This document shows, one piece after another, positions 55,422-61,813 of a stretch of 64,000 nucleotides of DNA (positions are counted from its first letter, which is position 1; each line of letters begins with the position of its first letter). Origin of the DNA: Escherichia coli (lineage in GTDB: Bacteria; Pseudomonadota; Gammaproteobacteria; Enterobacterales; Enterobacteriaceae); assembly GCF_003334815.1 (NCBI RefSeq), contig NZ_QOWO01000010.1. The stretch is one strand, 5' to 3'. A program made the position numbers and the translations under genes. A model generated the notes under the pieces. That model made no database searches. It saw only the letters and a list, made by a program, of their open reading frames with translations, and had not been told where the DNA came from.

Positions 55422-56003
55422 ATGACTGACTACCTGTTACTGTTTGTCGGAACTGTACTGGTCAATAACTTTGTACTGGTCAAGTTTCTCGGTCTCTGTC
55501 CGTTTATGGGGGTTTCCAAAAAACTGGAAACCGCGATGGGCATGGGGCTGGCAACAACGTTTGTGATGACGCTGGCGTCTATTTGCGCCTGGCTTATCGA
55601 TACGTGGATTTTGATCCCACTTAATCTGATTTACCTGCGCACCCTGGCATTTATTCTGGTGATTGCTGTGGTCGTGCAGTTCACCGAGATGGTGGTGCGC
55701 AAAACCAGCCCGGTGCTTTACCGTCTGCTGGGGATTTTTTTGCCGCTTATCACCACCAACTGTGCAGTGCTCGGCGTGGCGTTGCTGAATATCAATCTCG
55801 GGCACAATTTCTTGCAGTCGGCGCTGTACGGTTTTTCCGCCGCTGTCGGTTTCTCGCTGGTGATGGTGCTCTTCGCCGCCATCCGCGAACGCCTTGCTGT
55901 GGCTGATGTCCCGGCACCTTTTCGCGGTAATGCCATTGCGTTAATTACCGCAGGTCTTATGTCTCTGGCCTTTATGGGCTTTAGTGGTTTGGTGAAGTTG
56001 TAA
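55422..56003 (+). CDS. rsxA: Rnf/Rsx electron-transport complex subunit A
   Basis: 193-aa polytopic membrane protein, first gene of the rsxABCDGE cluster. Confidence 0.95.
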
Positions 56004-56581
56004 TGAATGCTATCTGGATTGCCGTTGCCGCCGTGAGCCTGCTGGGCCTGGCGTTTGGCGCCATTCTGGGTTATGCCTCCCGCCGTTTTGCGGTGGAAGA
56101 CGATCCGGTCGTTGAGAAAATTGACGAAATCTTACCGCAGAGCCAGTGTGGTCAGTGCGGTTATCCCGGCTGTCGCCCCTACGCGGAAGCCATCAGCTGT
56201 AACGGTGAAAAAATCAACCGTTGCGCCCCAGGTGGCGAAGCTGTGATGCTAAAAATTGCCGAGTTGCTTAATGTCGAGCCGCAGCCGCTGGATGGCGAAG
56301 CGCAAGAGATAACGCCTGCGCGGATGGTGGCGGTTATTGATGAAAATAACTGTATTGGCTGCACTAAATGTATTCAGGCGTGTCCGGTAGACGCCATCGT
56401 TGGCGCTACCCGTGCCATGCATACGGTAATGAGTGATCTCTGTACGGGCTGCAATTTATGTGTTGATCCGTGCCCGACGCACTGCATCTCGTTGCAACCG
56501 GTCGCAGAAACACCTGACTCCTGGAAATGGGATCTGAACACCATTCCCGTGCGTATCATTCCCGTGGAACACCATGCTTAA
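56003..56581 (+). CDS. rsxB: Rnf/Rsx complex subunit B (Fe-S)
   Basis: 192-aa ORF with Cys clusters (CGQCGYPGC; [12 protein letters not shown]; [12 protein letters not shown]). Its start overlaps the rsxA stop (TAATG). Confidence 0.95.
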
Positions 56582-58796
56582 GTTATTCTCTGCATTCAGA
56601 AAAAATAAAATCTGGGATTTCAACGGCGGCATCCATCCACCGGAGATGAAAACCCAGTCCAACGGTACACCCCTGCGCCAGGTACCCCTGGCGCAGCGTT
56701 TTGTTATTCCACTGAAACAGCATATTGGCGCTGAAGGTGAGTTGTGCGTTAGCGTCGGCGATAAAGTATTGCGCGGCCAGCCGCTTACCCGTGGTCGCGG
56801 CAAAATGCTGCCTGTTCACGCGCCCACCTCGGGTACCGTTACGGCTATTGCGCCCCACTCTACGGCTCATCCTTCAGCTTTAGCTGAATTAAGCGTGATT
56901 ATTGATGCCGATGGTGAAGACTGCTGGATCCCGCGCGACGGCTGGGCCGATTATCGCACTCGCAGTCGCGAAGAGTTAATCGAGCGCATACATCAGTTTG
57001 GTGTTGCCGGGCTGGGCGGTGCAGGATTCCCGACAGGCGTTAAATTGCAGGGTGGCGGAGATAAGATTGAAACGTTGATTATCAACGCGGCTGAGTGCGA
57101 GCCGTACATTACCGCCGATGACCGTTTGATGCAGGATTGCGCGGCTCAGGTCGTAGAGGGTATTCGCATTCTTGCGCATATTCTGCAGCCACGCGAAATT
57201 CTTATCGGCATTGAAGATAACAAACCGCAGGCGATTTCCATGCTGCGCGCGGTGCTGGCGGACTCTAACGATATTTCTCTGCGGGTGATTCCAACCAAAT
57301 ATCCTTCTGGCGGTGCTAAACAATTAACCTACATTCTGACCGGGAAGCAGGTTCCACATGGCGGGCGTTCATCCGATATCGGCGTATTAATGCAAAACGT
57401 CGGCACTGCTTATGCAGTGAAACGTGCCGTTATTGATGGCGAGCCGATTACCGAGCGTGTTGTAACCCTGACTGGCGAAGCAATCGCTCGCCCGGGCAAC
57501 GTCTGGGCACGGCTGGGGACGCCAGTGCGTCATTTATTGAATGATGCCGGATTCTGCCCCTCTGCCGATCAAATGGTGATTATGGGTGGCCCGCTAATGG
57601 GCTTTACCTTGCCATGGCTGGATGTCCCGGTCGTAAAGATTACCAACTGTCTGTTGGCTCCCTCTGCCAATGAACTTGGCGAACCACAGGAAGAACAAAG
57701 CTGCATCCGGTGTAGCGCCTGTGCTGACGCCTGCCCTGCGGATCTTTTGCCGCAACAGTTGTACTGGTTCAGCAAAGGTCAGCAACACGATAAAGCTACC
57801 ACGCATAACATTGCTGATTGCATTGAATGTGGGGCTTGCGCGTGGGTTTGCCCGAGCAATATTCCCCTGGTGCAATATTTCCGTCAGGAAAAAGCTGAAA
57901 TTGCGGCTATTCGTCAGGAAGAAAAGCGCGCCGCAGAAGCCAAAGCGCGTTTCGAAGCGCGCCAGGCTCGTCTGGAGCGCGAAAAAGCGGCTCGCCTTGA
58001 ACGACATAAGAGCGCAGCCGTTCAACCTGCAGCCAAAGATAAAGATGCGATTGCTGCCGCTCTGGCGCGGGTGAAAGAGAAACAGGCCCAGGCTACACAG
58101 CCTATTGTGATTAAAGCGGGCGAACGCCCGGATAACAGTGCAATTATTGCAGCACGGGAAGCCCGTAAAGCGCAAGCCAGAGCGAAACAGGCAGAACTGC
58201 AGCAAACTAACGACGCAGCAACCGTTGCTGATCCACGTAAAACTGCCGTTGAAGCAGCTATCGCCCGCGCCAAAGCGCGCAAGCTGGAACAGCAACAGGC
58301 TAATGCGGAACCAGAACAACAGGTCGATCCGCGCAAAGCCGCCGTCGAAGCCGCTATTGCCCGTGCCAAAGCGCGCAAGCTGGAACAGCAACAGGCTAAT
58401 GCGGAACCAGAAGAACAGGTCGATCCGCGCAAAGCCGCCGTCGAAGCCGCTATTGCCCGTGCCAAAGCACGCAAGCTGGAACAGCAACAGGCTAATGCCG
58501 AGCCAGAACAACAGGTCGATCCGCGCAAAGCCGCCGTCGAAGCCGCTATTGCCCGAGCCAAAGCGCGCAAACGGGAACAGCAACCGGCTAATGCGGAGCC
58601 AGAAGAACAGGTTGATCCGCGCAAAGCTGCCGTCGAAGCGGCTATTGCACGCGCCAAAGCACGCAAGCTGGAACAGCAACAGGCTAATGCGGTACCAGAA
58701 GAACAGGTTGATCCGCGCAAAGCGGCAGTTGCCGCGGCTATTGCCCGCGCTCAGGCCAAAAAAGCCGCCCAGCAGAAGGTTGTAAACGAGGACTAA
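56574..58796 (+). CDS. rsxC: Rnf/Rsx complex subunit C (NADH-binding, Fe-S) with a C-terminal repeat region
   Basis: 740-aa ORF. N-terminal RnfC domain with two 4Fe-4S motifs ([12 protein letters not shown]; [12 protein letters not shown]), followed by a Lys/Ala/Glu-rich tail built from 32-aa tandem repeats. Confidence 0.95.
58230..58770 (+). repeat. Tandem repeat array (96-bp unit, 5 full copies plus a partial sixth) inside the rsxC coding sequence
   Basis: Repeating peptide [29 protein letters not shown](E/Q)QV; nucleotide units begin at 58230 and then every 96 bp (checked at 58710). Copies differ at a few positions. Confidence 0.85.
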
Positions 58797-60479: not shown

Positions 60480-60482
60480 AGC

Positions 60483-61178
60483 GTGAGCGAAATTAAAGAC
60501 GTTATTGTTCAGGGGTTGTGGAAAAACAACTCTGCGCTGGTCCAGTTGCTCGGCCTTTGTCCTCTGTTGGCGGTCACGTCCACTGCCACTAACGCTCTGG
60601 GTTTAGGACTTGCGACTACGCTGGTACTGACGCTGACCAACCTGACCATTTCGACGCTGCGTCACTGGACGCCAGCCGAGATCCGCATTCCCATTTACGT
60701 GATGATCATCGCCTCGGTGGTCAGCGCTGTACAGATGCTGATCAACGCCTACGCCTTTGGCCTGTATCAATCATTAGGGATTTTTATTCCGCTGATTGTC
60801 ACTAACTGTATCGTTGTGGGCCGCGCTGAAGCCTTCGCCGCCAAAAAAGGTCCGGCGCTTTCGGCACTGGACGGCTTTTCAATTGGTATGGGCGCAACCT
60901 GCGCCATGTTCGTGCTGGGTTCACTACGCGAAATTATCGGCAATGGCACATTGTTTGACGGTGCAGATGCGCTGTTAGGTAGCTGGGCAAAAGTATTACG
61001 CGTGGAGATTTTCCACACCGACTCCCCTTTCCTGCTGGCGATGCTGCCACCAGGTGCATTTATTGGCCTGGGACTGATGCTGGCAGGAAAATACCTGATT
61101 GATGAAAGAATGAAAAAGCGCCGTGCTGAAGCAGCTGCAGAACGTGCATTGCCAAACGGTGAAACAGGGAATGTCTGA
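60483..61178 (+). CDS. rsxE: Rnf/Rsx complex subunit E
   Basis: 231-aa polytopic membrane protein with a GTG start, paralogous to rsxA. Confidence 0.95.
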
Positions 61179-61813
61179 TGAATAAAGCAAAACGCCTGGA
61201 GATCCTCACTCGCCTGCGTGAGAACAATCCTCATCCCACCACCGAGCTTAATTTCAGTTCGCCTTTTGAATTGCTGATTGCCGTACTGCTTTCCGCTCAG
61301 GCGACCGATGTCAGTGTTAATAAGGCGACGGCGAAACTCTACCCGGTGGCGAATACGCCTGCAGCGATGCTTGAACTGGGCGTTGAAGGGGTGAAAACCT
61401 ATATCAAAACGATTGGGCTTTATAACAGCAAAGCAGAAAATATCATCAAAACCTGCCGTATCTTGCTGGAGCAGCATAATGGCGAGGTTCCGGAAGATCG
61501 TGCTGCGCTTGAAGCCCTGCCCGGCGTAGGTCGTAAAACAGCCAACGTCGTATTAAACACTGCATTCGGCTGGCCGACTATTGCTGTCGACACGCACATT
61601 TTCCGCGTTTGTAATCGTACTCAATTTGCGCCGGGGAAAAACGTCGAACAGGTAGAAGAAAAGCTACTGAAAGTGGTTCCAGCAGAGTTTAAAGTCGACT
61701 GCCACCATTGGTTGATCCTGCACGGGCGTTATACCTGCATTGCCCGCAAGCCCCGCTGTGGCTCTTGTATTATTGAAGATCTTTGTGAATACAAAGAGAA
61801 AGTTGACATCTGA
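61178..61813 (+). CDS. nth: Endonuclease III (DNA glycosylase/AP lyase, HhH-GPD with 4Fe-4S)
   Basis: 211-aa ORF with an HhH motif (LPGVGRKTANVVL) and a C-terminal Cys cluster (CIARKPRCGSCIIEDLC). Its start overlaps the rsxE stop. Confidence 0.95.
   Translation: MNKAKRLEILTRLRENNPHPTTELNFSSPFELLIAVLLSAQATDVSVNKATAKLYPVANTPAAMLELGVEGVKTYIKTIGLYNSKAENIIKTCRILLEQHNGEVPEDRAALEALPGVGRKTANVVLNTAFGWPTIAVDTHIFRVCNRTQFAPGKNVEQVEEKLLKVVPAEFKVDCHHWLILHGRYTCIARKPRCGSCIIEDLCEYKEKVDI

Follow-up and report, generated by a model that had tools for sequence, protein, structure and literature searches.

nth as the last gene of the Escherichia coli rsxABCDGE-nth transcription unit and its position behind rnfE in Gammaproteobacteria

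Introduction

The Rsx complex of Escherichia coli comprises the same six subunit families as the Rnf complexes of Azotobacter vinelandii, Clostridium tetanomorphum, and Acetobacterium woodii, and shares with them iron-sulfur (Fe-S) and flavinylation motifs. Those complexes (RnfABCDGE) are ion-translocating ferredoxin:NAD+ oxidoreductases. The role assigned to the E. coli complex is the reduction of SoxR, not energy conservation or nitrogen fixation. Together with RseC and ApbE, Rsx constitutes the system re-reducing the [2Fe-2S] cluster of oxidized SoxR, whereby the superoxide response is switched off (PMC12174285; PMC11729352). Homology extends to Na+-NQR (nqrABCDEF), with RsxA and RsxE corresponding to NqrE and NqrD, RsxD to NqrB, and RsxG to NqrC. 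Unlike Na+-NQR, however, the rsx operon has no NqrF homolog and ends in nth, which encodes endonuclease III, a [4Fe-4S] DNA glycosylase/apurinic-apyrimidinic lyase. Firmicute-type Rnf operons also differ, having the gene order rnfCDGEAB and no nth. Here, we analyzed the rsxABCDGE-nth locus (positions 55422-61813) in a 64,000-nucleotide stretch of E. coli DNA (contig NZ_QOWO01000010.1), hereafter the window.

Judging by the title of Gifford and Wallace (2000), nth is reportedly the terminal gene of an operon, as is nei (endonuclease VIII). Located elsewhere in the genome, nei encodes another oxidative-damage glycosylase, one belonging to a different family. The name "rsxABCDGE-nth operon (regulonDB)" is used in a passage of PMC5021804, and an rpoS microarray study lists rsxABCDGE-nth, with all seven genes rising together in the rpoS mutant (PMC2907692).

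Results

The best overall explanation of the locus is a single rsxABCDGE-nth transcription unit with nth as the last gene on the shared mRNA, a reading to which we assign a probability of roughly 85%. The locus is the E. coli K-12 unit of that name (b1627-b1633), already described, from which it shows no difference: sequence (100% identity to MG1655 and related laboratory strains across window positions 55000-62500), coordinates, and operon name are all identical. The same interval had a match in 5,425 of 5,426 complete E. coli genomes. The seven open reading frames (ORFs), taken from an ORF list and from reading the junctions, coincide exactly with the RefSeq MG1655 gene coordinates (window position = NC_000913.3 position minus 1,650,345), and the RefSeq order at the locus is ydgJ (minus strand), blr, cnu/ydgT, ydgK, rsxA, rsxB, rsxC, rsxD, rsxG, rsxE, nth, and dtpA. 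A preliminary description, made from the sequence alone, had read the seven genes as one operon, which is right and already stands in the literature, in the two studies and the title named above.

Gene identities given in that description were likewise borne out, both by the RefSeq match and by NCBIfam models with curated cut-offs, which all seven products exceeded. The plus strand encodes, in order, an RnfA/NqrE-like membrane subunit (rsxA, 55422-56003, annotated in RefSeq; NF003481, 364.7 bits versus a cut-off of 240), an Fe-S subunit (rsxB, 56003-56581; NF003475, 337.5 versus 203), the NAD(P)H-side Fe-S/flavin subunit (rsxC, 56574-58796; NF003454, 868 versus 345), a membrane flavoprotein subunit (rsxD, 58797-59855; NF002011, 633.5 versus 415), a periplasm-facing flavin mononucleotide subunit (rsxG, 59859-60479; NF002519, 361 versus 178), an RnfE/NqrD-like membrane subunit with a GTG start (rsxE, 60483-61178, annotated in RefSeq; NF009070, 365.9 versus 184), and endonuclease III (nth, 61178-61813; NF007978, 486 versus 405). 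The Rsx/Rnf subunit set is complete, A, B, C, D, G, and E each passing their own family model, whereas Nqr models scored far below their cut-offs on the Rsx proteins.

At the motif level only, the ferredoxin-type 4Fe-4S motif CxxCxxCxxxC was found at residues 117 and 147 of RsxB and at residues 377 and 416 of RsxC, and flavinylation-type motifs (D-x-x-[ST]-x-A-[TS]) at residue 181 of RsxD (DGISQAT) and residue 168 of RsxG (DQFTGAT). Residues ~14-498 of RsxC align with the RnfC chains of the Rnf complexes 8AHX, 7ZC6, and 9ERI, solved by cryo-electron microscopy. Nth aligns end to end with PDB entry 2ABK, residues 1-211 in each (474.9 bits, E 2e-142), and retains K120 and D138, the HhH-GPD catalytic pair, as well as the [4Fe-4S] loop C187-x6-C194-x2-C197-x5-C203.

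The genes from rsxA to nth lie on one strand and are tightly packed. rsxA and rsxB overlap by 1 bp (TAATG), rsxB and rsxC overlap by 8 bp, rsxC abuts rsxD (0 bp, TAAATG), gaps of 3 bp separate rsxD from rsxG and rsxG from rsxE, and the ATG of nth overlaps the TGA of rsxE by 1 bp (TGATG), leaving no spacer at this last junction. Direct reading of the sequence agreed to the base with the six junctions of the preliminary description. Taking gaps from the annotated gene coordinates of the window, all six rsx-nth junctions were ≤3 bp compared with 4 of the 34 other same-strand neighbor pairs (Fisher p = 5e-5). Restricting the comparison to pairs with gaps ≤60 bp left 13, of which 4 were ≤3 bp (p = 0.008). 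Operons for multi-subunit complexes usually have this appearance; the packing is real but ordinary, and operon status was already known.

Co-transcription of rsxA to nth is taken from the literature. An internal promoter or terminator separating nth from rsxE would have contradicted the preliminary description, but scans for sigma-70-like sites on the plus strand inside rsxE and for terminator-like hairpins between rsxE and nth both found none.

Given the stop/start overlaps, translational coupling across the junctions can reasonably be inferred, and we favor it, albeit with some reserve. Shine-Dalgarno-like pairing is weak before rsxB (-3.8 kcal/mol) and rsxC (-3.3 kcal/mol) and moderate (-4.5 to -6.4 kcal/mol) before rsxD, rsxG, rsxE, and nth, energies compatible with coupled as well as independent initiation. 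The 8-bp overlap of rsxB and rsxC was present in 18/18 Enterobacterales loci, which supports the annotated rsxC start.

To test by comparison whether the nth linkage is functionally suggestive, a 7-sequence alignment of diverse RnfE was used to collect one locus from each of 80 species. All are Gammaproteobacteria, and their RnfE shares 51-97% identity with E. coli RsxE. RnfE diversity was drawn from a representative protein search, as every relative given by a word-indexed search exceeded 83% identity. A simple rule, the start codon nearest the aligned N-terminus, served to call gene starts in these loci, and two apparent overlaps of -74 and -80 bp are probably start miscalls. In 73 of the 80 loci, the next gene after rnfE on the same strand is an nth-family gene, a proportion that is not unbiased for all Rnf operons since these loci are the best 80 of at least 593 matches. 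Adjacency was established by tblastn with E. coli proteins in 72 loci and, in Vibrio sonorensis, by a divergent nth scoring above the TIGR01083 cut-off, and it spans Enterobacterales, Vibrionales, Alteromonadales, and Pasteurellales. In Haemophilus paraphrohaemolyticus (L055:7660-8574) and Haemophilus sputorum (L062:3486-4439), lpxM/msbB, encoding lipid A myristoyltransferase, replaces nth, while other sampled Pasteurellaceae (Haemophilus seminalis, Rodentibacter, and an Actinobacillus metagenome-assembled genome, MAG) keep nth after rnfE. No nth was found within the examined flank of loci L069, L072, L081, and L082, and in L075 the contig ends.

Junction spacing differed between groups. The rnfE/nth junction was ≤3 bp in 20/23 Enterobacterales, typically -4 (9 loci) or -1 (8 loci), whereas only 9/49 other Gammaproteobacteria had a junction this short, their median spacer being 36 bp. 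A hairpin followed by a T-run was detected in 6 of the 31 rnfE-nth spacers ≥25 bp, in Photobacterium, Pseudoalteromonas, and the proteobacterial MAG L083. In either group, junctions within rnf remained tight (medians of -8 to +3 bp), except for rsxD/rsxG in Enterobacterales (median +9 bp by heuristic start calls). Judged by gene order and spacing in these loci, nth is a stable 3' neighbor of the rnf operon in Gammaproteobacteria, although its attachment is looser than that among the rnf genes themselves. On the same comparison, the rnfE-nth order is old and widespread in Gammaproteobacteria, and the stop/start overlap is largely an Enterobacterales trait, hence weak evidence for shared function; any translational coupling of nth to rsxE would be lineage-specific.

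Further afield, nth lies 20 bp downstream of a metagenomic rnfE whose product has 44% identity. Two other distant loci sampled, one with a 40% RnfE relative and one of the Firmicute type (rnfCDGEAB-apbE, 39%), were without nth. According to a review, the rnf operons of other bacteria do not include endonuclease III (PMC4014512).

Several unusual architectures were seen among these sequences. The Kangiella MAG of locus L072 carries an rnfE-like gene (6998-7630, 58% identity) with no other rnf gene detected in the 7 kb upstream; this gene is either an orphan copy or part of a rearranged operon. Protein P0062, a 396-amino acid ORF on a 3,620-bp ENA metagenome contig, joins RsxE residues 1-208 to Nth residues 19-211 and matches PF02508, PF00730, and PF00633. 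A deletion at the overlapping junction, or an artefact of assembly there, is its most likely origin, but if real it would be a natural RsxE-Nth fusion. Unusual architectures also occurred in the RnfE representatives P0133, P0138, P0146, P0128, and P0129. Representatives of 416-422 amino acids carry ~190-200 extra N-terminal residues and are possibly RnfG-RnfE fusions, with no match to E. coli RsxG at E ≤ 1e-5; others comprise an RnfE-RnfA fusion (377 amino acids) or two tandem RnfE-like halves (287-306 amino acids).

Within rsxC, the best terminator-like match of the scanned region is a putative intragenic intrinsic terminator at 56673-56706 on the plus strand, scored by the scan at 56673-56696, with a 10-bp stem (CTGCGCCAGG/CCTGGCGCAG) followed by CGTTTTGTTA (fold -27.7 kcal/mol, z = -3.4). 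An intragenic rsxC terminator downstream of a PPE motif has been described that terminates in vitro only with NusA, and a delta-efp strain has 1.8-fold less distal rsxC transcript, a drop in read-through (PMC5021804). We infer that the hairpin at 56673-56706 is this EF-P/NusA-dependent terminator, despite starting 27 nt past the PPE codons (56637-56645) compared with the published distance of 16 nt. Since EF-P affects the rsxC terminator, ribosome continuity matters for full-length mRNA, including nth. Conservation of the E. coli hairpin is confined to the closest relatives, whereas that of the HPPE motif is wide.

Upstream of the operon, ydgK (54905-55345, plus strand, annotated in RefSeq) ends 76 bp before rsxA and encodes a DUF2569 inner-membrane protein, for which the NCBIfam search gave no match. 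It precedes rsxA in most Enterobacterales loci and may head a longer transcript. EcoCyc/RegulonDB presumably list a ydgK-rsxABCDGE-nth unit. The ydgK-rsxA spacer contains a sigma-70 promoter-like site, TTGTCG-17-GATAAT (55365-55393, plus strand; 9/12 in a consensus scan), 29 bp upstream of the rsxA ATG, and both hexamers are retained in most Enterobacteriaceae spacers. Overlapping these hexamers is a terminator-like hairpin (55367-55400) that is followed by TTTTTTATTT, the whole covering 55367-55410 on the plus strand (RNA fold -16.7 kcal/mol, z = -3.4, 1/200 shuffles as good). Conservation across Enterobacteriaceae and Yersinia extends to its 3' arm GGCGGC and the T-run, while the 5' arm is variable. 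From its sequence, 55365-55410 looks like a ydgK terminator with a promoter built in, a "stop ydgK / start rsxA" element.

A scan for SoxS/MarA marboxes gave 14 matches versus 18.8 expected, none of them convincing upstream of rsxA or ydgK, where the sole match with 2 mismatches is at 54799-54817 on the minus strand. The scan works, because it recovered a perfect SoxS/MarA/Rob marbox, ATGGCACGAAAGACCAAAC, at 36336-36354 (minus strand), ~90 bp upstream of fumC and the only zero-mismatch match in the window. This position fits the control of fumC by SoxS.

Downstream, a hairpin (GGGGTAA-CACCGA-TTACCCC, 61820-61839, no strand assigned) begins 7 nt past the nth stop codon (fold -12.5 kcal/mol, z = -2.0) and is the probable end of the transcript. 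The scan rated it terminator-like on the minus strand, which has the cleaner T-run; an A-run precedes the hairpin, and its plus-strand tail is ATTGATAACCTTTCTTTA. The hairpin may act in both directions, though no minus-strand gene converges on it. The spacer between nth and dtpA (61814-62423) is 611 bp long and AT-rich, and an Rfam scan of 54000-64000 found no RNA family.

E. coli RsxC differs from the solved RnfC chains (435-496 amino acids) in a C-terminal tail of ~240 residues with 32-amino acid repeats, for which these chains have no counterpart. Rich in Ala, Lys, Glu, and Gln, the tail is encoded by a 96-bp tandem repeat of 5.4 copies (58230-58750, plus strand; 91% matches, Tandem Repeats Finder). 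Copy number is polymorphic in E. coli, with matched spans that exceed the K-12 span by ~93 bp or fall short of it by ~94 or 480 bp.

Discussion

In the mechanism that we propose, the unit would supply an Rnf-type membrane oxidoreductase, with RsxB and RsxC as Fe-S subunits, RsxD and RsxG carrying flavin, and RsxA and RsxE in the membrane. Transcription would most likely start at the predicted promoter TTGTCG-17-GATAAT and/or by read-through from ydgK, and most likely end at the hairpin 7 nt past nth. All junctions fall between -8 and +3 bp and a finishing ribosome would therefore stand on or beside the next start codon, where termination and reinitiation may help match subunit amounts. A continuous train of ribosomes would in addition guard this long mRNA against premature termination, and the conditional intrinsic terminator in rsxC shows that such cover matters. 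As for nth, it would be a 3' passenger drawing steady low expression from a housekeeping operon, presumably neither a subunit nor a client of Rsx. Tight junctions everywhere within rnf, and mainly in Enterobacterales between rnfE and nth, fit such a passenger appended to the operon of a core complex.

Several observations weigh against this account. With the terminator-like hairpin and T-run overlapping the promoter-like site upstream of rsxA, the true 5' end may lie there, upstream of ydgK, or at both, Shine-Dalgarno pairing is weak before rsxA as well as before rsxB and rsxC, and a gene order conserved over many gammaproteobacterial genera could mean more than a passenger. In addition, sigma-54 binding and rpoN-responsive nth mRNA have been reported, and nth may have regulation of its own. 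Genomic systematic evolution of ligands by exponential enrichment with the sigma-54 holoenzyme gave, in vitro, a peak "rsxE > nth" at 1,709,534, at which RpoN holoenzyme and NtrC produced a gel shift, and nth mRNA falls 6.4-fold on nitrogen depletion, a fall lost in the rpoN mutant (PMC8743547). By our own old-to-new coordinate conversion, the peak is ~10-25 bp upstream of the nth ATG, at window positions ~61150-61178 in the 3' end of rsxE. (The study classes the peak as "spacer", although the two genes overlap by 1 bp.) A sigma-54 holoenzyme/NtrC site in the 3' end of rsxE, by starting or by blocking transcription, could thus also, or mainly, control nth and partly uncouple it from rsx. We regard this as improbable, given that the authors of PMC8743547 interpret the effect as repression and infer no promoter, that they measured no rsx genes, so the effect could be operon-wide, and that there is zero intergenic spacer at rsxE/nth. 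Furthermore, the -24/-12-like matches near the junction, 60944-60959 (TGGCACATTGTTTGAC) and 61081-61096, have 3 mismatches each, and matches of this quality (≤3 mismatches) were no commoner in the window than in shuffles (106 versus 129 expected), yielding no callable site. Neither this nor the following alternatives are mutually exclusive with the operon model.

The tight junctions may alternatively record compaction or history only, with each cistron initiated independently and no meaningful coupling. We consider this unlikely, while granting it some weight. E. coli operons in general often show overlaps of -1 and -4, further overlaps occur in the window (uidB/uidA, -4; mdtI/mdtJ, -14), the Shine-Dalgarno pairing before rsxD, rsxG, rsxE, and nth would suffice for independent initiation, and most other Gammaproteobacteria have a spacer in place of the rnfE/nth overlap yet retain the gene pair. 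However, weak Shine-Dalgarno sequences and buried starts favor reinitiation at rsxB and rsxC, the invariant -8 overlap of these genes and the tight medians within rnf suggest selection on geometry, and the EF-P effect on the rsxC terminator indicates that ribosome continuity matters on the rsx mRNA. A more far-reaching proposal is a functional partnership, in which electrons from Rsx/Rnf would maintain or reset Nth's [4Fe-4S] cluster as they do the [2Fe-2S] cluster of SoxR. Long-lived gene neighborhoods often mark functional association, Rsx and Nth are both Fe-S proteins, and nth directly follows rnfE in the 73 loci and in the 44%-identity metagenomic locus; a partnership would explain why nth stayed there while other neighbors changed. 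Yet adjacency is lost in some Haemophilus, where lpxM took its place, and in L069, L072, L081, and L082, and nth is usually spaced off outside Enterobacterales, with terminator-like hairpins in 6/31 of the longer spacers. By Barton-laboratory electrochemistry, moreover, the 3+/2+ couple of DNA-bound endonuclease III is reportedly far more positive than that of SoxR, so no dedicated low-potential reductase should be needed for Nth. The SoxR potential is -285 mV (PMC12174285). The absence of nth from the Firmicute-type operon and the other distant locus, with which the passage in PMC4014512 agrees, also argues against a partnership, and we hold it to be highly improbable. A search of the available literature, part of which was swamped by human RNF/NTHL1 papers, found no experiment on an Rsx-Nth redox link. 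The preliminary description had called co-transcription of nth with an Fe-S-reducing system functionally suggestive; of this, the support from gene neighborhood (73/80) stands, with no evidence that Rsx services the Nth cluster.

The preferred reading thus remains the transcription unit with nth as its last gene. For E. coli K-12, textbooks or databases already cover the rsx-nth locus, the operon status of its genes, and what Rsx and Nth do, and the value added here is comparative and small: the conservation figures for the junctions, together with the published rsxC terminator and sigma-54 site placed on sequence coordinates. A partnership acting across Gammaproteobacteria, perhaps extending to other DNA-bound Fe-S repair enzymes after oxidative stress, has only a slender chance of being correct. 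An Rsx-Nth redox link is a long shot but, if true, would be of real interest, tying a membrane electron-transfer complex to the Fe-S chemistry of DNA repair.

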